Shown here in pieces: positions 3,203 through 20,834 of a stretch of 64,000 bases of DNA. Where the stretch lies: the NCBI GenBank assembly GCA_963741205.1, contig CAVUHW010000028.1:33526-97525 (forward strand), read 5' to 3'. Below the pieces are notes generated by a model. That model saw only the letters and a program-made list of their open reading frames with translations. It had not been told where the DNA came from and ran no database searches. The stretch comes from Nitrospirota bacterium. GTDB taxonomy: Bacteria; Nitrospirota; UBA9217. The translations under genes and the position numbers were made by a program. The stretch's first letter is position 1, and each line of letters starts with the position of its first letter.

Positions 3203-5703
3203 ATGACACAAGGCATGGAGGACAGCCATGGCAGGAGCGGGAACGTCCGGACGGGGAACGATCCCGCAGAGATCAAGCAATCGATTCTGGACAATCTCTA
3301 TTTCAGCCAGGCCCGCATCCCTCAAACAGCGACCCTCAACGACTGGTACATGGCTCTTGCGTACACCGTCCGTGACCGGATGCTCGATAACTGGCTTAGG
3401 TCGAATATACATCGGGGAAGGAAAGACCTGAAGATCGTAAGCTACTTGTCCGCTGAGTATCTCATGGGACCCCACCTCGGCAACAACCTGATAAATCTCG
3501 GCATCCGGGAGCAGGCCCAACAGGCTGTATCGGAACTGGGGCTCGATATGGAAGCGCTGCTCCGGCAGGAGGCAGAGCCTGGGCTCGGCAACGGCGGGCT
3601 CGGCAGGCTCGCGGCCTGTTACATGGATTCGCTCGCGACACTCCAGATTCCCGCCATCGGCTACGGCATCCGTTACGAATTCGGCATCTTCGATCAGGAG
3701 ATCGTGACGGCTGGCAGATGGAAAAAACAGACAAGTGGCTGCGCTGGGCAACCCCTGGGAGATCTGCCGCCCCGAGATCGTCTATGCTGTGAAGTGCGGC
3801 GGCCACACCGAGCACTATCCGGACGATCAGGGGCGGTTCAGGGTGCGCTGGGTCCCGAGCCGGGTGTCAAGGGAGTGGCCTACGACACGCCCATTGCCGG
3901 ATATCACGCGGGCATGACGAACTGCTCCGTCTCTGGAAGTCCGAGGCTGTTGAGTCCTTCGATTTTCAGGCATTCAACGTGGGCGACTACTACGGCGCCG
4001 TCGACGAGAAGATCGTTTCCGAGACCATCACCAAGGTCCTCTACCCGAATGACGAGCCTGCCATCGGCAAGCGCCTCCGCCTTGCACAGCAATACTTCTT
4101 CGTCTCCTGCTCACTCCGGGACATGATCCGGATCCATGAACTCCAGGGCAACACCAGCCTCGAAATTTTCAGGAGAGGTTTGCCGCCCAGCTCAACGACA
4201 CCCATCCCGCCATCGCCGTGGCCGAACTCATGCGGCTTCTCGTGGACGAGCGCCGCATCGATTGGGACGAGGCATGGGACATCACCCAGAGGACTCTTCT
4301 CCTACACCAATCACACCCTGCTCCCGAGGCGCTCGAGAACTGGCCTCTGCCGCTTTTGCCGGCCTCCTGCCGCGCCATCTGGAGATTATCTTCGAGATCA
4401 ACCGGCGGTTTCTCGAATGAGGTACGCGCGGAAGTCCCGGACGACGACGACGCGTCGGCGCCTGTCGCTCATCGATGAGGCGGGGGAAAAATCGGTGCGC
4501 ATGGCCAACCTGGCCACGGTGGGCAGCCATGCCGTCAACGGCGTGGCCGCGTCTCCACACGGAGCTGCTGAAGGAGACCGTTCTCCGGGATTTCCACGAA
4601 ATATCCCGAAAAATTCCACAACATCACCAATGGCGTGACGCCCCGCCGCTGGATGGCGCTTAGCAACCCGGGCCTTGCGGAGCTCATCACCGGCAGGATC
4701 GGCGACGAGTGGATCTGCGGCTCGATCAGATCGCGCAAGCTGGAGCCATTTCGCAGCGACCCGGGTTCCGGGAGCGCTGGCGTGCGGTCAAGCGGGCCAA
4801 CAAGGAAGCGCCTCGCTGGCCTCATCCGGGAGCGGACCGGCGTCACCGTGGCCCCCGCGAGCCTCTTCGACATTCAGGTGAAGCGGATCCACGAATACAA
4901 GCGCCAGCATCTGAACGTCCTCCACATCATCACCCTCTACAGCCGGCTCAGGCAAAACCCGGGCCTCGAACGTGCCGCGCGACCGTTGATTTTCGGCGGC
5001 AAGGCCGCTCCCGGCTACCTCATGGCCAAGCTGATCATCAAGCTGATCAATGCCGTCGCCGAGGTCGTGAACCACGACCCGGCAGTCACGAGACCGCCTG
5101 AAGGTGGTCTTCTTCCCCGATTTCAACGTCAAGAACGCCCAGCGGATCTACCCGGCCGCCGATCTCTCGGAACAGATCTCACGGCCGGCAAGGAGGCCTC
5201 GGGAACCGGGAACATGAAGTTCTCGATGAACGGCGCCCTCACGATCGGGACGTTGGACGGCGCCAATGTCGAGATCCGGAGGAGGTCGGGGAGGAGAACT
5301 TCTTCCTCTTCGGCCTCAAGACGGAAGAAGTCGAAAGAATAATGTCTGCGGTTACAACCCGCTCGCGAGCTACAAACCAAACCCGGAACTGGGGAGGTCA
5401 TCGAGGCGCTCGCCTCGGGCCTCTTCTCCCGGGGCGACCGGGCTTTTCAGCCCCTGGTCGATTCTCGATGGACCGCGACAAGTACCTGGTCTTCGCGGAC
5501 TACCAGTCCTATGTCGATAGCCAGGACCGAGTGTCCGAGGCGTTCCGGGATCAGGAACGATGGACGCGCATGTCGATCTTGAATGGGCGCGCATGGGCAA
5601 ATTCTCCTCGGACCGCTCGATCCGGGAATACTGCGCCCGCATCTGGCAGGCGAAGGCAGTTACTGACGGCCCGCGCGGAAAAATGAATACCGTTTTAACT
5701 TGA
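3203..5703 (+). CDS. glgP: glycogen/alpha-glucan phosphorylase, reading frame interrupted more than 10 times
   Basis: AAGGAGG lies 5 nt before the ATG at 3203. Hallmark blocks are scattered over all three + frames: EPGLGNGGLGRLAACYMDSLATL, YGIRYEFGIFDQ, YPNDEPAIGKRLRLAQQYFFVS, TNHTLLPEALE, VRMANLATVGSHAVNGVAALHTELL, NITNGVTPRRW, KRIHEYKRQHLN, IFGGKAAPGY, EASGTGNMKFSMNGALTIGTLDGANVEI and SSDRSIREYCARIW. The stop TGA at 5701-5703 lies just before the poly-G block. Confidence 0.85.
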
Positions 5704-5707
5704 GGAA

Positions 5708-6022
<315 letters not shown>

Positions 6023-7283: not shown

Positions 7284-10200
7284 TTACCCGTTCCGGCGTA
7301 TGGAGGAATATATTTCCTTGGTTTTTGTGGAGGGCTCAAGCCCGAAGGCTTTTTGAAGCATGGCGCGGCAGCGGTAATAGACTTTGACAACCTCTGCTTC
7401 CTGGCCGAGTTTATGGTGGCAGATCATAAGCTGCTGGTACAGCTCCTCGGCAAGGTCGTCTATCTCGATCCCTTTCTGGTAACACTCTACCGCGAGGTCG
7501 TAGCGGCCTGACTGCTGCCGGTATTTGCCGAGGGCCTTCGTGTAATAGAGAAATTTCGTGCGCAGGCGCTCTCTCAGGGAAATAGTCCAAGGTTCCTTGG
7601 CGTCTCCGGGAAGAAAATGACCTTTATAAAGAGCAAGGGCCTTTTCAGTCAGTCGTATCGTTTCCTCGATATCGGCCTGCGGACGGCGGAACGCCGGATC
7701 GGGACATGCCGGATCTTTCGCGGCTACGAACTCATGCCCTTGCTCCTTCTGTTTCCACATATCTTCCACCCGGCACAGGAGACGCTCGAACCCCCACGCA
7801 TCAGTCCATACGCGCTGATCGTTCAGGCTCACCTGTCCTTCCTGCAGCAGGATCGCTTCATCATCACCTAAAAGTTTCCGTAAGCGGTGGAGCGTGGTAT
7901 CCAGGTTCCGGTTGGCGGCGTCGCCTTCTGCTTCGGGCCACAGGGCATCGATGAGCTGTGACTCAGAAACGCTCTTCCCGCCGAAGGCGATCAATGTCTT
8001 GAGCATCGAGAGCGGCTTCTGCTGCACCTTGCCTGGAGACACAACAGGCTTCTCGTCCCTGAGCAACTCAAACCCGCCGAGAGTGTAGACCTTAACCGGC
8101 CAGGGCCACTGATCAAGATGCAGCGGGGGTGTAAGCGGCATTAATTGCCGTTTTCTAATGAGGTGTCGCACATACTCAACCTCAATCCCCGATTCAAGGG
8201 CCTTCATGCACAGCCTGGCCATAATGGATGGCCTCCAAAAATACATGTTATCTATCCCGTGGTCTCTGCCCAGGCTGAATGCTTTACGGAGAGACTCAAG
8301 CCCCTTCACTTCGTTTTCACGTTTGAAGTGAAGGCAGGATTCGCAATTGAATAGCTATATAGAAGGTATGCGCTGCCCATGCTTTGAATCAGAGGGAATA
8401 CCTTTTCAAGACATTCAGCGGCATCGTGATCGAGCCCCTGTTCAAGGCAGATCTCCGCCAAGTTGATCCGGATGGCTGCTTCCGGTGCACGAATCCGATT
8501 TTCACTGCACCGTTCAGTGAAAGCTCCAGGAATTGGCGGGCTTGCGAATAATTTGCACTGAGGGCGGATTTCCATGCAATTAGCCAATAATAGTACCCCT
8601 TGTCCACGGCTCGGCATGCGCCAAGCCCAGCCGTGATTTTCGGCAGAAATTCCCCGATGAGCTTTTCGTCCCCCTCGGAAAGCGCCGCGGCAAGCATATG
8701 GCCATAGATGTATGTGTCCCAAAAATGTACCCCGCTCTTGTCGGCTAGGGCCAGAGCTTCGTGTGCCTTTTTCATGCCCTCATCGAGTGCACAGGTGACG
8801 AAAGAATAGTGGGCCTCGATTGCTTTCACCATGAGTTGCACGAGTTCGGTCGCTTCCCCGGACTTGGCAGACTCACGAAGCAGGCTGAGGATCATCCCCG
8901 CCTTGGTGAAATTCCCCTGGTAAATGTAATGAGCGATGAGGTGCAATCCGGAATTGAGGAACAGATCGGCGTCCGAAATCATCCCTGCGCAAACAATCGA
9001 AAAGGCCCGTTCCCGTATCTCGTGAATATCGGGATGATCAGGTTGTCCGAAGGCGACTGCGTTAAAATAGCTCAACGCGACCCGATGCTCTATATCGTTC
9101 GATGGAAATGAGGGATCCTCTGCGAGCACCCTCTCCAGGATTTCAGTCCAAGGCCTCATGTGCACATATACGCATTCGTGAAACGCTGTGTCGACGACAG
9201 CGCACCAGGAAAGGAAAAGGCCCGTCCTATCCCCCTGCATCCGGAAGAGCGCAAACGCCTTCTCAAAAGAGGCCCTGCTCTCACGAGGATTAAAAGCCAG
9301 CAAGCAGGCGCCTTGCCAGAACAGGAGGTAGGGAGTTTGTTCAATCAGCTCGCGAGGCATGGCGTCAAGCCATGCACGAACCGCTCCGGTCCTGCCCTCG
9401 GAGAGGAGCGCCGGCGCTCCAGTACAGATAAGCCGTGCCGCTTCAGGCCAATCCCGTGCTCGAAGGAAAAGTCCAATGGCATCTTCAACTTTGCCGGATT
9501 TTTCCAGGATAGCCGCCGCGCGCCGTTCGATCGCAGCGACTCCGTCCTGCGTGAACTCGTCACGCGCCCGGGTCATGAGAAATTCGCGGAACAGGGGATG
9601 GAACTGGTAGGAAGCGTCATGATGCATGTGCCGGGTCGTAAAAAAGTTATTTTTCGATAGATCGTCGAGGAGTGCGCCTGCCGAAGATAGACCGGTCAAT
9701 TCGGCGGCGGCCGCAGGGCTTATCCCCGGAAGGAGCGATGTCTGCATCAGGAAACGTTGTGTGGTTTCGTCCATCTTGATGAATATTTCTGATGCGAAGT
9801 AATTAAAAATGCTCTCCCTCGTTGAACCGGTCAATACAGTGTCAATATCACTATTCTTGAGCGACTCCAGAATGAGCACGAGCCCAGCTGCCCAGCCATC
9901 TGTTTTTTCGTGCAAGCGCTCGAGGGTGCTAACCGCGATGCCCTTCACACTGCTTCTGAGGGCCAGATCTCTAGTTTCCGTCAGGGAAAGCCGGATGTCA
10001 TCCCATCCGATAAAGGGCATATCGTTGTTTGTATGGCCATGAGAAAAAATCGGTAGCGGTCCTCTTCTGCTAATAACGATCATAGTGAAACCCTCAGGCA
10101 AAACCGATATCCCTGTGCTGATCGCGTGATGGAGCATCGAGTCAGATGGCGCGTCCTGATAATTGTCGAGTACGAGTACGAGAGGTGGTTTAAACTTCCG

Positions 10201-10560
10201 GCAAAGTTCTTCAAAATATCTGCGAGTGAACGTCTCTATGCCGGGAATATGAGCGGGAGTCAGCATCGGCAATGGTTTATTATTTCGGGGAGACGAATGG
10301 AGAACGGCTTGCCCCAGGTAATGAAAAAAGGAAGCGGGGTCTCCATCACCTTCATCTACCTGGTACCACAGACAGGGTAGCTTGCGAGATTGGAGCCAAC
10401 TCGCGATAAGTGTGGTCTTGCCCGATCCGCCAGGCGCCGAGACCCAGACTACGCGCTTCGACCGGCATTTGTCGAGGAGGCGGAAAAGCCTTAGCCGCTC
10501 CATTACGCCGGTGATGGTAGGACGGCTGATCTTGGCTATAGATGCATTTTGGTTCGCCAT
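7284..10560 (-). CDS. large STAND-type ATPase / TPR / SARP (winged-helix plus BTAD) transcriptional regulator; two frame breaks
   Basis: The N-terminal P-loop VVWVSAPGGSGKTTL and a MalT-like body lie in ORF 8389..10560. The middle piece is ORF 8306..8722. The C-terminal part is ORF 7284..8309, with VKVYTLGGFELLRDEKPV...LSMLKTLIAFGGKSVSESQLIDALWPE...LHRLRKLLG (OmpR-like wHTH) followed by the BTAD-like ALALYKGHFLPGD...EELYQQLMICHHKLGQEAEVVKVYYRCRAMLQKAFGLEPS. Confidence 0.8.
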
Positions 10561-10829
10561 ACGATGGAATCAGGATGAGTCTTTATAGGGAGTGTTGTTT
10601 TAACCGGGCAGTGATGGATGTATTGACTAAGCAAGACTACCAAAAATAATAGGCAATGTCAACAAAATATAGCACAATGTTGAATGTTTTTTTATTGGCA
10701 GATCTTAATAGTAGAACCTTGTTCTATTATGAATATTGTAATTTCCAGCGTGTCTATTAAAGATTTCTTTATGGGACACCCTGACTGCTGTATTCGGTCC
10801 GCAATTTATCAAGCAGTTCTAACAACGAA

Positions 10830-11501
10830 TTACAATACCCTTTTGGGACGGTACCAAACAACCGCAAAACCATCTCGACCAAGCATGCCCGCCTTATAGA
10901 GCTTCAATGTCCTGTGAACGGTCGCCCGCGGTATTCGCACCTTCTCAACGATCTGCCTGACGGATAGCTTCTCGCTCTCATGTGCGTCGATGATCTTCGC
11001 CAGGGAAGCCGGTGCGGATGACTTCCTCCCGATCTTTATGCCCTTCTGTTTTGCGAGTGCCATACCCGCCTTCACCCGCTCCTGAATTAGGGAACGCTCA
11101 AATTCCGCCATTGCGCCGATAATAGGAAACATCATCCTGCCCGCAGGTGTAGATAGGTCAATATTTTCCTGATAGGATACAAAGGACACTCCAAGGCTTT
11201 GCAATTCGCTCAGGGAATTAATGAGATGCTTTAAGGACCTCCCCCACTCGTCGAGTTTCCAGACGACTATGCAATCGATTTTCCTTTTTCGAGCATCGTC
11301 TAATAGCCTGTCGAGTTGAGGTCTCCGGTCTTTTGCGCCTGACTGCCCGATATCAACATACTCACCTATTATTGACCAGCCCCTCACTTGGCAAAATTCA
11401 TTGATAGGGTTTAATTGAAGATCGGGTTCTGGCTTTTATCAGCCGTTGATATCCTGGCGTAAATGCCGACACGAGCAATTCTTATTTTCCAATTCGTTCA
11501 T
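10830..11501 (-). CDS. serine recombinase (resolvase/invertase family); two compensating frame breaks in the N-terminal catalytic region
   Basis: ORF 10830..11387 contains CIVVWKLDEWGRSLKHL, GRMMFPIIGAMAEFERSLIQERVKAGMALAKQKG and a C-terminal HTH (SVRQIVEKVRIPRATVHRTL). Upstream, the ATG at 11501 (GGAAGGAG RBS) is in the same phase. The catalytic-serine block RIARVGIYARISTADKSQN reads in another frame between about 11480 and 11420. Confidence 0.8.
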
Positions 11502-11544
11502 AATATGCTCCTTCCGATATGAATCTCATGGTTGTCGGTGCAAG

Positions 11545-11721
11545 TTACTTCTTCTTTGCCTTGTCAAGACTTAACTCTTCCTCAGTCAGCGCGCTGGAGA
11601 ACTACGACAGGTTTTCCCAACTTAGTGATGATGATCTGCCTGCCGGTACGCTAGACTCGGCCACGATCTGCGTGGCCCTCTGCCGTAACTCTGAAACCGT
11701 CACGAATTTCAAATTAACCAT
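11545..11721 (-). CDS. Phd/YefM-like antitoxin-type small DNA-binding protein; two compensating frame breaks
   Basis: The ATG at 11721 has GGAG 5 nt upstream. Frame A reads MVNLKFVTVSELRQRATQIVAE... The middle piece in another frame reads QIIITKLGKPVVVLQ, the Phd/YefM hallmark. Frame A resumes with SALTEEELSLDKAKKK and the stop at 11545-11547. The 177-nt span is divisible by 3. Confidence 0.55.
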
Positions 11722-11750
11722 GTCTACTCCCTTCCAGCATGATAGACAAT

Positions 11751-11779
11751 ATTATAGACATTATTTTAGCTATTGTCAA
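11751..11779 (-). promoter_or_regulatory. consensus sigma70-type promoter TTGACA-17-TATAAT with TGTCTAT direct repeats
   Basis: The minus strand reads cTTGACAatagctaaaataatgtcTATAATattgtctatcatgctggaagggagtagacATG. The -35 box is at 11779-11774 and the -10 box at 11756-11751, with a 17-nt spacer. TGTCTAT occurs twice, once overlapping the -10 box and once at about +1. Confidence 0.6.
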
Positions 11780-12175
11780 GAGTAGAAAGGGAGTAAGACT
11801 GGTCTGGGTGTGAACTCAATGATCTTTGCCTTCGTCGGTTCCCCTGTTCGCAAGGTGGCGGCTTCTTTGCTTGAGGCCGTTACTCAACTTTGGTTTACGA
11901 ATACCCACAAAATACACAACTCATTTCTATTGACATCACCCATCATCACATATATAATTTTGTCCATCACCGTTTTTTTCAAGCTACGCAATTAGCCTTG
12001 AATTAAATACCAGCAGACCACCACTCTACACCAACGAATAACTCAAATGGTCAAGTTAGCTTAACTTTCAAAGAAAACGGAGATTCTAAATTTGTCTTTG
12101 TATACGCGACGAAGGATAACCTTAATGTAGTAACATCTCAACCATTTCAAAAAAGTTATTAGGATGGGGGAAACG

Positions 12176-13053
12176 ATGTCAATTAATTGTAGGGTTTTAC
12201 GAGTTGTGACAGTGATGGTTTTCGGTGCTCTCTTTATCTTCGCATCGAGCGTTTATGCAGATACTATTTATCTCAAAGATGGGACGTTGACAAAAAGGGG
12301 CGGTCAAGAGCGAAGATGAAAAAACAATATTAATTGAAATCGGCAATACTTGGAAGAGAGTTGATAAAAGCAATATTGAAAGCATGACCAAAGATGCAGT
12401 CCCCGCAGTTCCTGCAGAACAGCAGGCCGAAACAAACGTCCCGGCTCAACAACCAAGCGCAAAAACGTCTAAAGAAGTAACAGATTTACGTTTAAAGTTC
12501 GGAACTGCTGCGCAGGTAGAAAAAATAATCGAAAACGGCACCTCTTTTGATTTGAATAGTGAGAATCACCGCAACATTCAAATAGATGTTAATACAATAA
12601 TGTATGGACAGTCGGATATAGGGCTATTACTAAGTGCTGGCCTTTTTGGGAGGCAACATTCCGGCCACGATAAAGACGTATCCCAACTTAAAGTCGATTA
12701 CCGTGCTGGTGGCGTCAGTCTTGGCATTGGTGTGGGGATGAAGGCTAACGAGCATCTGCATTTTGAAGGTAAAGGAGAACTCGGTTTGGGAGACGGGAAA
12801 TGCGACGATAAAAGTTCCGGGACCGGGACCAATTAGCATTACAACGGAAAGGGGGGAGTATGTATCATTTTCGTTCATTGCTGGCGCGTACTATACATTC
12901 AGCAAACCAGGTCTTCAAATTGGTTTAGAACTTGGGGCTCAATCATTCAGCGGAAAATTTACAATAAAAGATAACACCGTTAATCAGACCTCCAACGAAG
13001 AAGTAAAGGGAACTGGTGGTACTGCAAACTTAGTTGTTGGCTATCGTTTCTAA
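12176..13053 (+). CDS. outer-membrane beta-barrel protein with signal peptide; two frame breaks
   Basis: ATG at 12176, signal peptide VVTVMVFGALFIFASSVYA, then DTIYLKDGTLTK. A frame break at the A5G4 run (12292-12300) leads to GAVKSEDEKTILIEIGNTWKRVDKSNIESM (ORF 12384..12836). A second break lies near 12800. The C-terminus ...GTGGTANLVVGYRF ends in the aromatic residue typical of OMP barrels. Confidence 0.6.
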
Positions 13054-13200
13054 AAGATAAATATAGAATCGAGACTCGGAGATTATTGAGCCGCATTTTC
13101 AGTAAGTGTCCTTCGGCTTGATTTCAGGTTCTGGCATCACCATAAGAGAGGATACAGGCAAGCGGTCGGTATTAAACTACTTAACTCTGAAAAGGAGGAA

Positions 13201-13924
13201 ATGACAATGAGGAAGAGCATTGCATGGGCTGTCATTTGTTTATTGGCTGAAATAGGCTTGACCGCTTGCGGTGGTAGCGGTGGTGGCGGTGGGAATTCGA
13301 CGCCTGAACTACGCCTGCTAGGCACTGTCGTTAACCTTAGCCAGATCAAGAATTTCGCGGAAGCAACAACACCAGGGAGTACAATTTCCTTTACTGTGGC
13401 AGGCTCAATCGATACCCACGAAACTGACAGGGTTATTCTCTTTAGCGATCTCTTCGCCATCCATCACATCAACGCCCACAGGCACACAAACTGTTAATGT
13501 GCTGGTGCAAAACGTATCTTTAACGAACCCGAGTACGGGCGCGTCTGTGTCAGCCACGACTACTTACTACTGCTATCAAACAGGCTACCTCTATAAAATA
13601 GTTCATGATGATGGAACTATATCTACCCCAACCTCTCAGACATTATTACCCTCATCTGCAAAAGTAGGAGATTTCGGTGACGACATGGTGCTAAGCAACT
13701 CCGATGGAACCACTGAAACAAGTACCTGGAGAATAGACCCAGGCACAAATGGAGATGCCATATTCGTCTACTCTTTCACCGACAGGGATAGCTCTAATGT
13801 AGTGACGGAAACATCGGAAGATGCCTATACAATAAAGCCAGATGGGTCGATAACAGCGATATCGACAAAATTCAATGATCCGGGGACAGGTAGGTCCGGG
13901 ATCATGTCCGGCAATAAGAATTAA
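13201..13924 (+). CDS. lipoprotein of unknown function; one frame break
   Basis: The lipobox signal MRKSIAWAVICLLAEIGLTAC is followed by a Gly-rich linker. ORF 13201..13497 continues, after a break near 13440, as SSPSITSTPTGTQTVNVLVQNVSLTNPSTGASV... (ORF 13499..13924). Confidence 0.55.
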
Positions 13925-14466
13925 GCAATTATTGCCTATCGGTTTGAGTTACAATCGACTATTTAATGGAAAGGGACGGCAAATTGTACCTTCCTATCGA
14001 AGCGATTTCACTAAAGAAATTGCGATAACACACACAAAAGGGATTCGAGCCATCGTTATCGCCGCGTCCCTTATCTTTACCTAGCAGGTCACTGACTCCA
14101 CATCGCCGTCTTCGGGAACTCGATGATGGTAAAAAGACTTTTTTCAATTCTATCAATCCTGTAAGAAAAGGCCCACGGTTGCCCAAGGACGTTATCAACG
14201 TATTGCTTGTGTCGGTTCGTGTGTCAGAAGAGGGTTCAAATCAGAGTAAACATCACCACGCTTTTTTCGGCATCTCTTAGGTATTCTGTCCGACTGTGAA
14301 TGTATCTGTCAGTACGGGATGATAGCTGGATTATATGTATTGCTCAAGTAATAAAAAAAAGCCCGGAATGTCTTTGTCCGAGTCTTGTCCGATGAATATT
14401 TGTACCATTTGTGTACCAAAAAAAATAAGAAAGCGCCGTAAAGGCTCTGATTCTTTTAAGAATTAT

Positions 14467-14544
14467 TGGCGTCCCCAGGGGGATTCGAACCCCTGTTATC
14501 GCCGTGAAAGGGCGGTGTCCTGGGCCGGGCTAGACGATGGGGAC
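14467..14544 (-). tRNA. tRNA-Glu (anticodon TTC), CCA encoded
   Basis: The reverse complement reads GTCCCCATCGTCTAGCCCGGCCCAGGACACCGCCCTTTCACGGCGATAACAGGGGTTCGAATCCCCCTGGGGACGCCA. It is close to the classical bacterial tRNA-Glu(UUC) sequence, with anticodon loop CTTTCAC. Confidence 0.9.
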
Positions 14545-14656
14545 GTACTAACATATGAACTCAGAGTTCAAAGTAAAGTGCAAATTAACAAATCTCTCAG
14601 ATGCAACTTTCTACTTTGCACTTTTTTCTAACTCTGTACTCTCAACTGTTTTTAAA

Positions 14657-14732
14657 TGGTGAGCCGGCTGGGACTCGAACCCAGGACACCCGCCTTAAAA
14701 GGGCGGTGCTCTACCAACTGAGCTACCGGCCC
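14657..14732 (-). tRNA. tRNA-Lys (anticodon TTT), CCA encoded
   Basis: The reverse complement reads GGGCCGGTAGCTCAGTTGGTAGAGCACCGCCCTTTTAAGGCGGGTGTCCTGGGTTCGAGTCCCAGCCGGCTCACCA. The cloverleaf is regular. The anticodon stem is CCGCC/GGCGG and the loop is CTTTTAA. Confidence 0.92.
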
Positions 14733-14874: not shown

Positions 14875-16190
14875 TTACTGTTTTGTCGCCTTCTTCTTGA
14901 ACGGCTGCTCAAGGATGATGGTCTCGTCCCTGCGCGCGCCGGTCGAGATGATGGCCGGCTTGACCCCGCAGAGCTTGCAGAGCTTCTCCACGTAGGCCCG
15001 GGCCTTTTTCGGCAGGTCGTCGTATTTCCTGACGCCGATGGTGGTCTGCTTCCAGCCGGGCATGGTGATGTACTGCGGCTCCCTTTTTCCAGCACGGCGA
15101 GCTCCGACGGCATCTCTTCGTAGAGTTTCCCCTTGTACTTGTAGCCCACGCAGATCTTGAGCTCGTCGAGGGTGTCGAGCACGTCGAGCTTGGTGATGGC
15201 CGACGCTCGTCATGCCGTTTACGCGCACGGCATGGCGGATGATGAGGGTGTCCGCCCAGCCGCACCGCCGCGGCCTGCCGGTCGTGGCGCCGTATTCCTT
15301 GCCGCGGGCGCGGAGCAGCTCTCCCAGCTCGTTCTCCTGCTCCGTGGGGAAGGGTCCGCTGCCCACGCGGGTGGTATAGGCCTTGACGATGCCCATCACC
15401 TCGGTGATCGAGTTCGGGCCGATGCCGAGGCCCGTGCAGGCGCCGCCCGCCGTGGGGCTGGACGAGGTCACAAAGGGATAGGTCCCGTGGTCCACGTCCA
15501 GGTGCGTGCCCTGCGCCCCTTCGGCAAGGATCTTTCTTGTTTTTGCCGATCGACTGATTGAGGAACAGCGTGGTATCGGCGATATACTTTTTGAGGCGTC
15601 TTGGCATATCCCAGGTATTCCTCGTACACCTGGTCCAGGTGCACCACGCGGCGCATTGTAGAAACGTTCGAGCAGGAAGTTCGCCTCGCCGGTGTTGCTC
15701 GCGAGCTTTTCGCGGAACATCGCCGGATCCAGGAGATCGGCCATCCTGATGCCCTTGCGGTTGATCTTGTCGGCATAGGCCGGGCCGATGCCGCGGCCCG
15801 TGGTCCCGATCTTCTTGTTGCCCTTGAGCTTCTCGCTCGCGACATCGAGCGCCTTGTGGTACGGCATGATCAGATGGGCGTTCTTGCTGATCAGGAGGCT
15901 GTCGTCGAACTTGATGCCGCGCTTTGGCCATGGCGTCCATTTCTTCGAGGAGCGCGGACGGGATCGATCGACCACGCCGTTTCCGATGATGCATTTCTTG
16001 CCCCTGTGCAGGATGCCCGGAGGGGACCAGGTGCAGGATGAACTCGTCCATGCCCGACCACGACCGTATGACCGGCGTTGTGGCCCCCCTGGTAGCGCGC
16101 GACGATATCCGCCCGCTCGGTCAGGAGGTCGATGATCTTTCCCTTGCCTTCATCGCCCCACTGGGCGCCGACAACGACTAAAACTGGCAT
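14875..16190 (-). CDS. purA: adenylosuccinate synthetase; several frame breaks
   Basis: The N-terminus is [43 protein letters not shown] (start at 16190). Later blocks lie in other frames: [70 protein letters not shown] and [19 protein letters not shown]. The protein ends ...[16 protein letters not shown]. Confidence 0.88.
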
Positions 16191-16203
16191 TGCAAACTCC
16201 TTT

Positions 16204-16268
16204 ATTGGAAATTGCAAATTGGAAATTGACAGATGAACGAATGCTTCATTTCCAATTTCCAATATTGC
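16204..16268. repeat. intergenic imperfect hairpin with tandem-unit arms (GGAAATTG units; CAGATGAAC in the loop)
   Basis: attggaaattgcaaattggaaattga / cagatgaacgaatgct / tcatttccaatttccaatattgc. It lies between the serA stop and the purA start. Confidence 0.6.
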
Positions 16269-16366
16269 CTGCACTGCGCTTCCACACCTGCATTCGCGCT
16301 ATGCTTCATACGCTGGCCGCACTTCGCTGGTGCAGGCAATTCAATTCATTCCGCCAAAGCGGAATG

Positions 16367-17951
16367 CTATATCTTGATCTGCTTCACCGACAGCACGTTC
16401 GGCAGCTGTCTTGATCTTTGCCATGAGCTCGTCGGACACGACGCTGTCGATGCTTACCACCGACATGGCCAGGCCGCCCTGCTTCTCGCGGCCGAACTGC
16501 ATGCGCGCGATGTTGATCGCCGTTCTGGCCGAGGAGCATGCCGATGCCGCCGATAACGCCCGGTTTGTCGTTGTTCATGAGCACCAGCATGTCGCCCTCG
16601 GGCACCGTCTCCATGGGGAAATTGTCCACCTGGATGATGCGCGGCTCTTTCTTGCTGTTCAGCGTGCCCGGAAGCGGACACGTCCCTGCCGCCCGCCTTG
16701 ATCCGGAGCGTGACGAGGCTCGTATACTCGGTAGCCCCGGTGGACTTGGACACCTTGACCTCGATGCCCCGGTCCTTGGCGATGAGCGGCGCGTTCACGT
16801 AGTTCACGTTCTCCTGCAGGGTCGGCGTGAGCAGGCCCTTGAGCGCCGCGAGCGTGATCGGCTCCTGTTTGAGGTTCGCCACCTCCCCGCTGTACTCCAC
16901 GGTCACCTGGGTGAGGCCGCCCTCGGAGAGCTGGGCGATGAACAGGCCCATGCGCTCCGCAAGGTTGATGTAGGGAGAGAGCGTCGGGAGCTGGTCCGCG
17001 GGCACCGACGGCACGTTCACGGCGTTCCGCACGGTCCCGGCGACGAGGTAATCCACGATCTGCTCGGCCACGGCAACGGCCACGTTCTCCTGGGCCTCCC
17101 GGGTGGAAGCGCCGAGATGCGGCGTGGCGATAAAGTTGTCGAGGGTCAGGAGCGGATGGTTCTCCGGCGGCTCCTTCTCGAACACGTCGAAGGCCGCTGC
17201 CGCGACCTTGCCGCTCTTCAAGCGCCTCGTAAGAGATCCTGCTCGTTCACGATGCCGCCGCGGGCGCAGTTGATGATGCGCACGCCGTCCTTCATCTGGG
17301 CGATCGTGTCCTTGTTGATCAGGTTCGCCGTTTCCTTGGTCTTGGGCGTATGGATCGTGATGAAGTCGGACCGCTTGTAGAGCGTCGGCAGGTCCGCGAG
17401 CTCGATGCCGAGGCGACTTCGCCTTTTCCGCGGAGATGAACGGGATCATAGGCCAGGACCTTCATGCCGAGCCCGATGGCCCGGTTCGCGACCACGCCGC
17501 CGATCGCGCCCAGCCCGACGATCCCCAGGGTCTTGTCGTAGAGCTCGACGCCCTCGAACTTCTTCTTTTCCCACTTGCCCGCCTTGAGCGAGGCGTAGGA
17601 CTGGGGGATCATCCGGGCGCAGGCGAAGATCATGCCGATGGTGTGCTCCGCCGTGGTGACCGTGTTGCCGCCGGGCGTGTTCATCACCACAACGCCCTTC
17701 TTGGTGGCCGCCGGGATGTCCACGTTGTCCAGGCCGCTGCCCGCGCGGCCCACGACCTTGAGCTTCGCCGCCTTCTCGAGCAGCCCCGCCGTGACCTTGG
17801 TGGCCGAGCGGATGATCAGCGCGTCGTAGTCGCCGATGATCTTCTCGATCTCCTCGACCGAGGTCTTGCTCCGGGCGTCCACCTCGAGCCCGGCCTTTTT
17901 CAAGATCTCCACCCCGACGGGGGAGAGGTTGTCGCTGATGAGAACCTTCAT
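16367..17951 (-). CDS. serA: D-3-phosphoglycerate dehydrogenase with C-terminal ACT domain; frame breaks
   Basis: The start at 17951 has GGAGGTATC upstream. The sequence reads MKVLISDNLSPVGVEILKKAGLEV...VVGRAGSGLDNVDIPAATKKGVVVMNTPGGN...LGIVGLGAIGGVVANRA. The ACT part is LVLMNNDKPGVIGGIGMLLGQNG, and the C-terminal frame ends QLPNVLSVKQIKI with the stop at 16367-16369. Confidence 0.88.
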
Positions 17952-17973
17952 GATACCTCCTAAATGCAGATGT

Positions 17974-18053
17974 AACCACAGATGAACACGGATGGACACA
18001 AAATTAAATCCTTAATTCAGCTTTAAATAGCTTTACCGTGTTCATCTGTGGTT
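17974..18053. repeat. 18-bp perfect inverted repeat (AACCACAGATGAACACGG / CCGTGTTCATCTGTGGTT) with 44-nt spacer
   Basis: The arms lie at 17974-17991 and 18036-18053. They fill the spacer between the aminotransferase stop (18060) and the serA start (17951). Confidence 0.8.
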
Positions 18054-18059
18054 AATAAT

Positions 18060-19199
18060 TTATTTCATCAATATTTCCTGCGCCGCGCCGACGCCCGTAC
18101 CGAGCTTCACCGGATGGCCCAGGCCCTTCAGGACCATCTCGATGCCGGCAATGGCCGTGATCACGTCGAAGGTATCGGCATAGCCCAGGTGCGCGATGCG
18201 GAAGATCTTGCCCTTGAGCTTGTCCTGGCCTCCGGCGCCGGTGATGCCGTACTTCACGCGAAGGTCCTTATAGATCGCCTGGCCGTCAACGCCCGCGGGC
18301 GCTTCAATGGCCGTGAGCGCATTGCTCGGAGCTTTCCTTCGGGAAGAGCTTGAGGCCGAGGGCCGCGGCCCCCGCGCGGGTCGCCCGGGCGAGACGGTCG
18401 TGGCGGCGCAAACACCTTCTCGAGCCCTTCATCCTGGAGCATCTTGATGCAGGAGTTGAGCCCGATGATGAGCGTCACCGCCGAGGTGAAATTCGTCTGG
18501 TTCTTGGCCAGGTTCTCGCGCTCTTTCTTGAAATTGAAATAGAACTTCGGCGTCTTGGCCGTATCGGCCATCTTCCATGCCTTGTCGGAGACGGACACGA
18601 AGGCGAGCCCCGGGCGGAAGCATCACGCCCTTCTGCGAGCCGCCGATCATGACGTCGATGCCCCACTCGTCGGTCCTGATGTCGTGCGCCACGAGGGCCG
18701 AGATCGCATCGACGACAAAGAGCGCGTCGGTCTTCTTGACGACCGCCGCGACGGACTTGACGTCATGGTACACGCCGGTGGACGTCTCGTTCGCCTGGAT
18801 GAAGACGGCCTTGATCTTCGGGTTCTTCTTGAGCGCGGCCTCGACCTGCTCGGCCTTCACCGCATGGCCCCACTCCACGATGAGCTCTTCGACCTTCATG
18901 CCGTAGGCCTGGCAGATCTTGGTCCAGCGTTCGCCGAACTTACCGCCGTTGACGACCAGCACGTCGTCGCCGGGGCTCAGGAAGTTGGTCACCGAGCCGA
19001 CCATGCCGCCGGTGCCGGTGGAGCAGAGGATGAGCACGTCGTTCTTGGTCTGGTAGAGCCACTGAAGGCCCTTTTTTGCGGAATCGAGCACCGGAAGGAA
19101 ATCCGGCGCCCGGTGGTGGATGATCGGCATGGCCATGGCCAGAAGCGCCTCAGGGGGCACCGGGGTCGGGCCAGGGGCCAGAAGATATTTTTTCTGCAT
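18060..19199 (-). CDS. class-V (serine-pyruvate / phosphoserine-type) aminotransferase; frame breaks
   Basis: MQKKYLLAPGPTPVPPEALLAMAMPIIHHRAPDF...LILCSTGTGGMVGSVTNFLSPGDDVLVVNGGKFGERW...VVDAISALVAHDIRTDEWGIDVMIGGSQKG, with the C-terminus in ORF 18060..18257. It sits directly upstream of serA, suggesting a role in serine biosynthesis. Confidence 0.8.
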
Positions 19200-19504
19200 G
19201 GGTATATCCTCCATTAATAAGGGTAAGCGAAAACGCCTGTCAGGTTGTTTATCTGGTACAGCGCTGATATACGTAATCGTATTATGCTGAAGAAGATTAT
19301 AGTCCCGCCGGGGCGGGACCTATGCCCGGGGTTGGCGTGTCGCTGGGATATTGTGGGTGTCTGTGCTGTTTCAAGAGGTGCTGCCTTTCTTTAGCTTATT
19401 CAGGCCAAAAACCATGTGACAGTAGCATAAGCCGATGAAAATTGTCAAGAAAATAGTTCCCCGGAACAGCAAGCTGCTCCAGGGCATCATGAAGCGAAAT
19501 AATC

Positions 19505-19900
19505 CTACTTTTGCATGATGTCCATAATCAGGCTTAATGAAACCACGGGGTTCGTGCGGTCATTGGAATACACGCTGACGTGCTTTTCGAGAGGACCGTT
19601 CTTCCCGGTCGTATCAACACTCGCCTTGATCTGCCCGACGGCCCCCGGATCCAGGTGATCCGAACTGATCACCGCGGCGGTGCACCCTCAGGAGGTCTGG
19701 ACCCGCTCTATGATCAGCGGTTCCGTGCCCGCATTGCGCACCTCGAAAACATGGGTGGCCTGCGTCCCCTGAACGACTTTGCCGAAATCATACTTCCATT
19801 CCTTGATCTCGATCTTCGGTGCCTTGGCCTCCTGGGCCGCAATCAGGCCGGCGTAAAGGAAGAAGGCCATGAGAATGCTTAACCATGCCATCCTTTTCAT
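19505..19900 (-). CDS. secreted DUF1573-family protein with an in-frame TGA (19688-19690) at the first Cys of the SCGCT motif (candidate Sec)
   Basis: MKRMAWLSILMAFFLYAGLIAAQEA (signal), then ...FGKVVQGTQATHVFEVRNAGTEPLIIERVQTS-TGA-GCTAAVISSDHLDPGAVGQIKASVDTTGKNGPLEKHVSVYSNDRTNPVVSLSLIMDIMQK, ending at TAG 19505-19507. The frame is the same on both sides of the TGA. Confidence 0.7.
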
Positions 19901-19954
19901 ACGTCAGCTTCCTCTCTGCGAAGATGTTTCACATCCTTCATTTATTCCGCATCC

Positions 19955-20662
19955 TCAAAATCCTATTTTTTTCTGATAGATCATGCTGACGAGTTCATCG
20001 CGGGAAATAATCCCTTTTTCCACGAGCAGGCTGGTGATTGCGTCGATCCGGACCCTGCAGTCCTGCAGCGCCTGCTGTGCGGTCTCTTCCTTGGACAGGA
20101 TTGGCGACTTCGCATCGTTCGTCTCCGATTTCGGCATGCTGAGGTCGCTTCCGCGGATAATTTCCATTTTCCCCTCCGAGGCATGTTCTCTCTGGTAAAA
20201 AGGGTTTAGTGTTTGTTTCCGGACGATTTTCTCGTGGTCGTAGTATGTCCTGATGGCGTCCAGGATCTCGGATTCCATGGCCAAAGTCGGTTTGATGTTC
20301 AGTCCTGTAATGAAGCGGATCTCGTCGATCGCTTTGATGTCAAGAGGATCCGACATGGCTAGCATGAGCATCCCCTTCTCCCGCCGGGCCGGAACCACGT
20401 GATATTTCCTGGCAACCTCGGCTTTGACGAGCTTAATAACGCCTTCGTGGATTTCCGGTTCGAACAGATTGATGTAGGGGGTCTTAAGTTTTTCGGCAAT
20501 GACGCGGGCGATGTCCTCCTCCTGCACAAATTCCAGTTCTATCAGGATGGAGCCCAGTTTGCCTCCCCAGTTCCGCTGATGAGAAAGAGCCGCAGAGAGT
20601 TGAAATTCATCGATGAGACCAGCTTCTTTCAGCAATTCGCCGAGTTTCCTGGCCTCTGGCAT
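19955..20662 (-). CDS. stand-alone GspE-N / MshEN-like domain protein (no ATPase domain)
   Basis: The likely start is MPEARKLGELL at 20662, with GGAGG 10 nt upstream. The tandem motifs KLGELLKEAGLIDEFQLSAALSHQ - RNWGG - KLGSILIELEFVQEEDIARVIAEK are followed by a T2SSE_N-like fold (YHVVPARREKGMLMLAMSDPLDIKAIDEIRFITGLNIKPTLAMESEILDAI). Confidence 0.7.
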   Translation of the reverse strand: MPEARKLGELLKEAGLIDEFQLSAALSHQRNWGGKLGSILIELEFVQEEDIARVIAEKLKTPYINLFEPEIHEGVIKLVKAEVARKYHVVPARREKGMLMLAMSDPLDIKAIDEIRFITGLNIKPTLAMESEILDAIRTYYDHEKIVRKQTLNPFYQREHASEGKMEIIRGSDLSMPKSETNDAKSPILSKEETAQQALQDCRVRIDAITSLLVEKGIISRDELVSMIYQKKIGF

Positions 20663-20834
20663 GGGTCCGGACCTCCACCAAAAATCGCGTTCTCGAGCTG
20701 ATTGTCGGTAATTATATGCTTCGGGAGCGCCGGATGTCAATAAGTATTGGAGGAAAAGAGTAATGGGGGGAGCGTTCCCCTGAAAAAAATCCGTTGCCGC
20801 CATCGAGCTTCGCCACGGTCAATGCCGGATTCGG

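Follow-up and report, generated by a model that had tools for sequence, protein, structure and literature searches.

An in-frame UGA that almost certainly encodes selenocysteine in a DUF1573/OS_HP2-family gene of Nitrospirota

The window analyzed in this study is a 64,000-nt stretch of contig CAVUHW010000028.1 from a Nitrospirota bacterium. On its minus strand, an ORF extends from an ATG at 19900-19898 to a TGA at 19690-19688, the last residues before the TGA being ...TEPLIIERVQTS (...AGTEPLIIERVQTS). Past the TGA, the unshifted frame reads GCTAAVISSDHL... (GCTAAVISSDHLDPGAVGQIK...) up to a TAG at 19507-19505, giving a total of 131 codons in which the TGA, codon 71, is the sole interruption. 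With Cys substituted at this codon, the protein matched the Pfam DUF1573 family (PF07610, E=2.7e-26, 91.9 bits, above the gathering cutoff of 26.1) over residues 30-119, corresponding to model positions 1-90 of 98, and it also matched the HYDIN/VesB-like Ig family. These results confirmed the proposal of the first-pass annotation that a single 131-codon frame for a signal peptide and a DUF1573 domain is broken only by the TGA. Residues 1-22, MKRMAWLSILMAFFLYAGLIAA (19835-19900, minus strand), were predicted by inspection to form a Sec-pathway signal peptide, with a K/R n-region, a hydrophobic core, I-A-A ahead of the cleavage site, and probable cleavage before QE. An equivalent N-terminus ending in AQE was common to all homologs. 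The TGA occupies the first position of a U-G-C (CxC-type) motif, and the partner Cys is encoded by the TGC at 19682-19684 (minus strand).

The borders of the gene were read from the sequence. A putative Shine-Dalgarno-like element, GAGAGGAAG, lies 5' of the ATG at 19908-19916 (minus strand), and a terminator-like GC-rich hairpin with a T-rich tail was detected by a consensus scan approximately 20 nt past the TAG (19459-19484, minus strand). The terminator-like hairpin is weak evidence when taken alone, as one such site was found in the region vs 2.1 expected in shuffled sequences; it lies where a full-length gene would be expected to end. Directly upstream, a gene at 19955-20803 on the minus strand encodes a 282-aa protein with an MshEN domain of the c-di-GMP-binding type (PF05157, E=3.2e-21) and without an ATPase domain. 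Its c-di-GMP motif scored 72.3 bits against NF053729 (cutoff, 38). The MshEN gene ends in a TGA located 54 nt before the ATG of the DUF1573 gene, and in 11 of 14 related loci (L001, L003, L006, L081, L082, L084-L087, L089, and L091) it likewise immediately precedes the DUF1573 gene. Judging from this arrangement, the MshEN gene is a conserved neighbor that may be functionally linked to the DUF1573 protein. The proteins encoded around the gene were 76-96% identical to those of Nitrospirota MAG loci, and the order of MshEN gene, DUF1573 gene, aminotransferase gene, serA and, approximately 5 kb further on, tRNA-Lys and tRNA-Glu was conserved, which places the window in a Nitrospirota genome.

In the window, the tRNA-Glu and tRNA-Lys genes (14467-14732) lie beside a low-GC stretch at approximately 10000-14400 (43-47% GC vs 57% overall). 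This stretch carries a serine resolvase gene (10833-11435, minus strand) and adjoins a 723-aa ORF with no Pfam match (8389-10560) and a gene for a BTAD/Trans_reg_C regulator (7284-8309); it resembles a mobile element or island that integrated beside the tRNA genes. The start of the window encodes a redoxin of the AhpC/TSA type (206-976) and a multihaem cytochrome (1461-2507) that carries four Paired_CXXCH_1 repeats, both on the minus strand. The redoxin domain contained no internal in-frame stop, so this gene does not encode a second selenoprotein. A scan of the window for further TGA codons read through in frame gave 161 candidates and was abandoned as too noisy in GC-rich, frameshifted sequence.

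The purA, serA, and class-V aminotransferase genes next to the DUF1573 gene (14875-19214, minus strand) are each split over at least two frames relative to their intact homologs in L081, the class-V aminotransferase following the frame path 2 to 1 to 2. These splits may be attributed either to many assembly indel errors or to pseudogenes. A perfect 304-nt G homopolymer at 5708-6011, just downstream of glycogen phosphorylase fragments at 3203-5342 (plus strand), is almost certainly a sequencing or assembly artefact. Because frame-broken housekeeping genes and a poly-G artefact imply that errors are common in this window, we considered whether the true codon at 19690-19688 was TGC or TGT and the TGA a substitution artefact. 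However, the errors in the neighboring genes are frame changes, that is, indels and not substitutions. The contrast drawn by the first-pass annotation between these broken neighbors and the same-frame stop in the DUF1573 gene held when the aminotransferase, serA, and purA were compared with L081. In addition, TGA was present at the same column in 23 related loci, comprising 12 Nitrospirota MAG loci and 11 metagenome contig loci. These loci span 43-73% protein identity and come from independent assemblies generated by various projects and on various platforms. A protein search also returned 12 distinct homologs of 72-90 residues (59-83% identity), all of which ended in ...RVQTS or an equivalent sequence just before the TGA column. 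Judged from the sequences, this shared end point is the signature of a common in-frame stop. An error at this codon is therefore exceedingly improbable.

The homologs were then compared at the motif itself. The protein search yielded two full-length Cys homologs, P0001 (64% identity) and P0002 (58% identity), both reading S-C-G-C-T. The S-U-G-C-T of the window protein aligned with the S-C-G-C-T of P0001, P0002, P0009, P0011, and P0017-19, in agreement with the earlier placement of the TGA at the first Cys of this motif. Among 160 fetched loci, 144 DUF1573 motif hits had Cys codons at both positions vs 23 loci with TGA at the first position. The second Cys was invariant in the homologs (TGC or TGT), with the exception of L092, which reads S-TGA-G-TGA-A. 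L092 (9629-9913) and L090 (2-376) belong to the same MAG, JBARBN01, and represent contig ends that overlap at 95% identity and carry variant copies of the gene; L090 has TGT at the second position. The double TGA of L092 may reflect a strain with U-G-U, an error, or decay of this gene copy.

The homologue comparison that the first-pass annotation had called for was extended to the sequence on both sides of the codon. In a close set of 20 loci (12 Nitrospirota MAG loci, one of them on a complete 3.26-Mb chromosome, and eight metagenome contig loci), TGA was present at the first-Cys column in 20/20, and neither TAA nor TAG occurred there. All 20 loci remained in frame for approximately 60 codons past the TGA before reaching a normal stop. 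The three further loci, L009-L011 (approximately 43% identity), also carried TGA at this column with a continuing frame. Amino acid identity was 65% over the 60 codons after the TGA vs 60% over the 42 codons before it, and the variable columns were distributed over the three codon positions as 37/25/56. These values indicate that the frame downstream of the TGA is translated and under purifying selection. The gene thus shows what is expected of a selenoprotein gene: an in-frame UGA aligned with the Cys of homologs and flanked by conserved sequence on both sides, and orthologs that keep both the UGA and the frame beyond it, the latter under purifying selection. As a specificity control, in-frame stops conserved between syntenic loci were tried and dropped, since off-frame and antisense translations of conserved genes also yield them.

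An alternative explanation is that the TGA is a genuine terminator, so that only a 70-residue product is made, and that the gene is a pseudogene or its downstream half is expressed separately from a GTG at 19672. Gene callers do annotate a stop at this position, all database entries end in ...VQTS, and a GTG-initiated ORF of 55 aa is present at 19505-19672 (minus strand). In contrast, the conservation of the downstream part, its third-position variation, and its constant phase with the upstream part across 43-73% identity are not those of a dispensable remnant. The stop was invariably TGA and never TAA or TAG, the Cys homologs were contiguous single proteins, and a 70-residue product would split the Ig-like domain in the middle of its sandwich. 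Taken together, these observations make termination at the TGA highly improbable.

The mRNA downstream of the TGA can form the hairpin GGUGAUC-AGUUCG-GAUCACC (19654-19673, minus strand), in which a 7-bp stem (19673-19667 with 19660-19654) closes a 6-nt loop (19666-19661) with G at loop position 2. The distance from the UGA is 14 nt to the hairpin and 21 nt to its loop, as described in the first-pass annotation, and the hairpin was contained in the MFE fold. Its free energy was -9.5 kcal/mol when folded alone. The z-score of the 71-nt local fold was only -1.67, and a 7-bp hairpin at 57% GC is unremarkable by itself, indicating that one sequence alone is insufficient to claim a functional hairpin. 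It is the comparative evidence that lifts the hairpin beyond chance. A stem-loop with the loop AGUUCN was present at the same position in 21 of 21 close sequences. In the main clade (17 distinct sequences), the 7-bp helix was 100% paired, with compensatory pairs at position 5 (A-U to G-C) and position 7 (C-G to U-A). The hairpin of the divergent L009-L011 clade reads GAUGGCU-AGUUCG-AGCCGUC; when this clade was included (19 distinct sequences), 133 of 133 cells were paired, with double changes at four of the seven pairs (17 cells). The observed covariation score was reached by none of 500 shuffles, and control registers slid by 1-3 nt were only 20-47% paired.

The stem lies within coding sequence, and part of the covariation is inherited by clade and not independent. 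L005 and L087 are identical at stem positions 3 and 5 and differ compensatorily at position 7, which suggests at least one extra independent event. The stem was retained in the divergent clade even though the encoded peptide shifts from AVISSDHL to AMASSSRL. Within the main clade, the change at position 7 combines a synonymous substitution in an Ile wobble position (AUC to AUU) with an Asp to Asn change on the opposite arm, a pattern that, from the sequences compared, would not be expected from protein-level constraint. In the closest Cys homolog, P0001, three of the seven stem positions were mismatched and the fold reached only -1.7 kcal/mol, showing that the hairpin was lost. The second Cys homolog, P0002, retained a weaker 6-bp hairpin (-8.4 kcal/mol), so Cys forms have not lost the hairpin without exception. 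In the main clade, we also evaluated a longer lower stem containing a bulged C, and two of its pairs were broken in 7 and 11 of the 17 sequences. As the lower stem was only partly supported, our claim is limited to the 7-bp apical helix. In the L009-L011 clade, the UGA itself pairs within a lower helix.

We compared the hairpin with the published bSECIS model, which specifies an apical loop of 3-9 nt, an upper stem of 4-16 bp, a UGA-loop distance of 16-37 nt, an MFE of -7.5 kcal/mol or lower, and a G at loop position 1 or 2, with G or U as the usual next nucleotide. All 21 sequences had a 6-nt AGUUCN loop with G then U, a 7-bp stem, and a 21-nt spacing, values that lie within the model. The energies were -7.1 to -11.1 kcal/mol for the hairpin alone and -11.3 to -19.4 kcal/mol for the 45 nt after the UGA, and it is the 45-nt fold that passes the -7.5 kcal/mol limit, as hairpin-only values reach -7.1. 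The suggestion that the hairpin follows the rules for bacterial SECIS elements was therefore borne out, and folding, covariation, and the published model together identify 19654-19673 as the apical stem-loop of a predicted bacterial SECIS element. Similar to the bacterial SECIS consensus (bSECISearch model; fdhF/fdnG type of E. coli), it lies in the coding region just 3' of the UGA, with its stem, loop G-U, 21-nt spacing, and 45-nt energy all within the model. In contrast, it shares no sequence similarity with the E. coli elements, and binding of SelB to it is a prediction. A permissive Rfam scan of 19450-19950 gave no match, which is uninformative because Rfam contains no model fitting such a bSECIS.

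The genes for selenocysteine (Sec) insertion were also sought. Neither the 64-kb window nor the sequence flanking the related loci yielded selA, selB, selD, or tRNA-Sec. Only tRNA-Lys and tRNA-Glu were detected when the window was scanned with ARAGORN and Rfam (gathering threshold) and 18 related loci with ARAGORN, and Pfam annotation of 30 major window ORFs revealed no sel genes. This absence is expected, since the window covers roughly 2% of a genome. In other organisms of this group, some Nitrospirae have been reported to carry selB and selC, with selC overlapping selB in a groundwater Nitrospirae lineage.

The lack of Sec machinery in the window and flanks would nevertheless agree with read-through of the UGA by other means, either by near-cognate insertion of Trp or Cys stimulated by the hairpin or by reassignment of UGA. 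Downstream hairpins can promote read-through in general. However, TGA functions as an ordinary stop in these genomes: it closes the MshEN gene upstream, both in the window and in 5 of the 11 related loci compared, and in 2 of 15 loci it is also the terminator of the DUF1573 gene. Codon reassignment is thereby excluded. Furthermore, the column is Cys in all non-TGA homologs, forming a classic Sec/Cys pair, and the hairpin geometry and the G-U of the loop agree with the SelB-type bSECIS model. The same family and motif have, moreover, already been accepted as a selenoprotein family. Read-through in the absence of a Sec system is thus very unlikely.

These comparisons establish that the UGA is conserved, that the frame downstream of it is translated, that the hairpin is conserved and covaries, and that the protein belongs to the DUF1573 family. 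Combined with the Cys homologs and the purifying selection after the UGA, these findings support the first reading of the TGA as a candidate selenocysteine codon, and the TGA at 19688-19690 (minus strand) almost certainly does specify selenocysteine and is served by a recoding hairpin of its own. On the basis of the single frame, the matches to PF07610 and NF041425, and the same architecture in 20 related loci, 19900-19505 (minus strand) is very probably one complete gene for a small periplasmic or otherwise exported DUF1573/OS_HP2-type selenoprotein in which the UGA is recoded via the hairpin; its dependence on SelB, the incorporation of Se, its export, and its redox role are what we infer from the sequence.

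The family to which this protein belongs is already known. The first-pass annotation had not counted DUF1573 among the listed selenoprotein families, which proved to be wrong: OS_HP2 was reported among new selenoprotein families from Olavius symbionts in 2007 (Zhang & Gladyshev 2007, NAR, PMC1976440). OS_HP2, for Olavius symbiont hypothetical protein 2, corresponds to pfam07610/DUF1573 with the motif UxC/UGC (PMC1976440, PMC2398784, PMC9312934, PMC13188914). The GOS study listed it as pfam07610 UxC with two Sec sequences and 354 Cys homologs (Zhang & Gladyshev 2008, PLoS Genet, PMC2398784), and it also appears in reviews from 2022 and 2026 (PMC9312934, PMC13188914). The novelty implied by the first-pass annotation therefore does not hold. 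The window protein agrees with the literature definition of OS_HP2, having a pfam07610 domain and U as the first residue of UxC, in the form S-U-G-C-T. The two are alike in their Pfam domain, in the Sec at the first position of U-G-C, in the abundance of Cys homologs, and in a stem-loop directly downstream of the UGA, which was published for OS_HP2. They differ in distribution, OS_HP2 being known from deltaproteobacterial symbionts and marine metagenomes and the window clade being from Nitrospirota. This comparison was based on the published descriptions of OS_HP2 and on the NF041425 model.

NF041425 is the NCBIfam model of the "OS_HP2 family (seleno)protein" (subfamily_domain). With Cys at codon 71, the window protein scored 86.1 bits against this model (E=1.6e-24, model positions 2-94 of 98), below the cutoff of 100. 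The other Nitrospirota Sec forms scored 76-84 bits, the L009 clade 78.6 bits, and the Cys forms 69-81 bits; all DUF1573 proteins tested, whether Sec or Cys, therefore fell between 69 and 86 bits, under the cutoff. These scores imply that the curated NF041425 subfamily is narrower than the set of proteins compared and that the Nitrospirota clade lies outside its boundary, which fits with the database products of this clade stopping at the TGA. The Nitrospirota lineage is thus a new branch of an already catalogued selenoprotein family. What is modestly new is this clade below the NF041425 cutoff, a fusion to cytochrome c within a second clade of Sec forms, and the conserved MshEN-domain neighbor.

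A likely course of translation can be proposed from the established bacterial Sec pathway. The UGA at 19690-19688 would be recoded to selenocysteine during translation, with the AGUUCN loop, 21 nt past the UGA, being bound by SelB-GTP-Sec-tRNASec. Sec would be delivered to the A site in competition with RF2, and 60 more codons would then be translated up to the TAG. The mature protein of approximately 109 residues would fold as an ASH/PapD-like Ig beta-sandwich, with U-G-C in a tight turn between two strands. The Sec-x-Cys pair could form a reversible selenenylsulfide or bind a soft metal or metalloid, acting as a periplasmic redox centre.

The structure was viewed through the AF2 model of P0001, a 64%-identical Cys homolog standing in for the window protein. 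The pLDDT of its domain exceeded 90, and C-G-C (residues 81-83) was placed between strands 72-79 and 83-87. Exposure on this modeled turn points to a role of Sec-x-Cys either as a selenenylsulfide redox couple or in binding a soft metal. CXC redox motifs are known from the CGC shuttle disulfide of Erv2p and from a CGC peptide mimic of protein disulfide isomerase. In the P0001 model, as in these systems, two chalcogen residues are located one Gly apart on an exposed turn. In contrast to Erv2p and thioredoxin-type systems, the fold of the window family is an Ig-like ASH/PapD sandwich and not that of a flavin-linked sulfhydryl oxidase or a thioredoxin. In a fold search (Foldseek), all matches were Ig domains of the generic ASH/PapD-like kind, none of them a functional analog. 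The sole hit of a PDB sequence search was 2qsv (profile E=1.7e-4), an uncharacterised protein of Porphyromonas gingivalis that has Ig-like domains in tandem; 2qsv was also the second-ranked Foldseek match (E=3.9e-7) and superimposed on the P0001 model with an rmsd of 2.2 A over 109 columns. In contrast to the window family, 2qsv has neither C-G-C nor U-G-C, the aligned turn reading ...VTTRNPALTAV, and it is therefore uninformative on the active site.

Additional hints came from related loci. In the second Sec clade, DUF1573(Sec) was fused to a C-terminal c-type cytochrome domain in L010 (236-1027) and L011 (701-1369); this domain contained two CxxCH motifs and matched PF13442 (E=3.6e-9). L009, of the same clade, has no cytochrome extension. 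The gene for P0001 (L161, 10904-11956) adjoins a gene for a SurA_N plus Thioredoxin_4/DsbA protein. The P0001 locus is not syntenic with those of the Sec forms, and it lies 4-10 kb from a complete T2SS/T4P-like gene cluster. Read from gene context, the cytochrome c fusion and the DsbA/thioredoxin-like neighbor hint at a redox role, and the replacement of a first Cys by Sec has been described in a review as typical of redox-active sites. Literature on DUF1573 beyond OS_HP2 consisted of incidental mentions in Bacteroides iron-stimulon tables and in work on Tannerella vesicles.

The results have consequences for annotation. In every related assembly examined, the database product stops at 72-90 residues, so that a selenoprotein conserved in Nitrospirota from soil, groundwater, and sediment has gone unrecorded, and the curated NCBI family model misses the Nitrospirota clade. 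The knowledge of Sec decoding itself is unchanged by our result; what is supplied is a clean SECIS alignment with covariation and the extension of a known selenoprotein family to another phylum. The cytochrome c fusion and the DsbA-like neighbor of a Cys form provide two context clues for experiments on the function of DUF1573, a family with hundreds of Cys homologs. As a tentative reading that we consider rather unlikely as a whole, the Nitrospirota clade and L009-L011 would be unrecognised DUF1573 selenoprotein branches whose U-G-C turn serves as a periplasmic selenenylsulfide or metal redox centre exchanging electrons with c-type cytochromes, and the protein might be co-expressed with the c-di-GMP-sensing MshEN-domain protein. 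If true, such a redox centre would be the first mechanistic handle on the large DUF1573 family.
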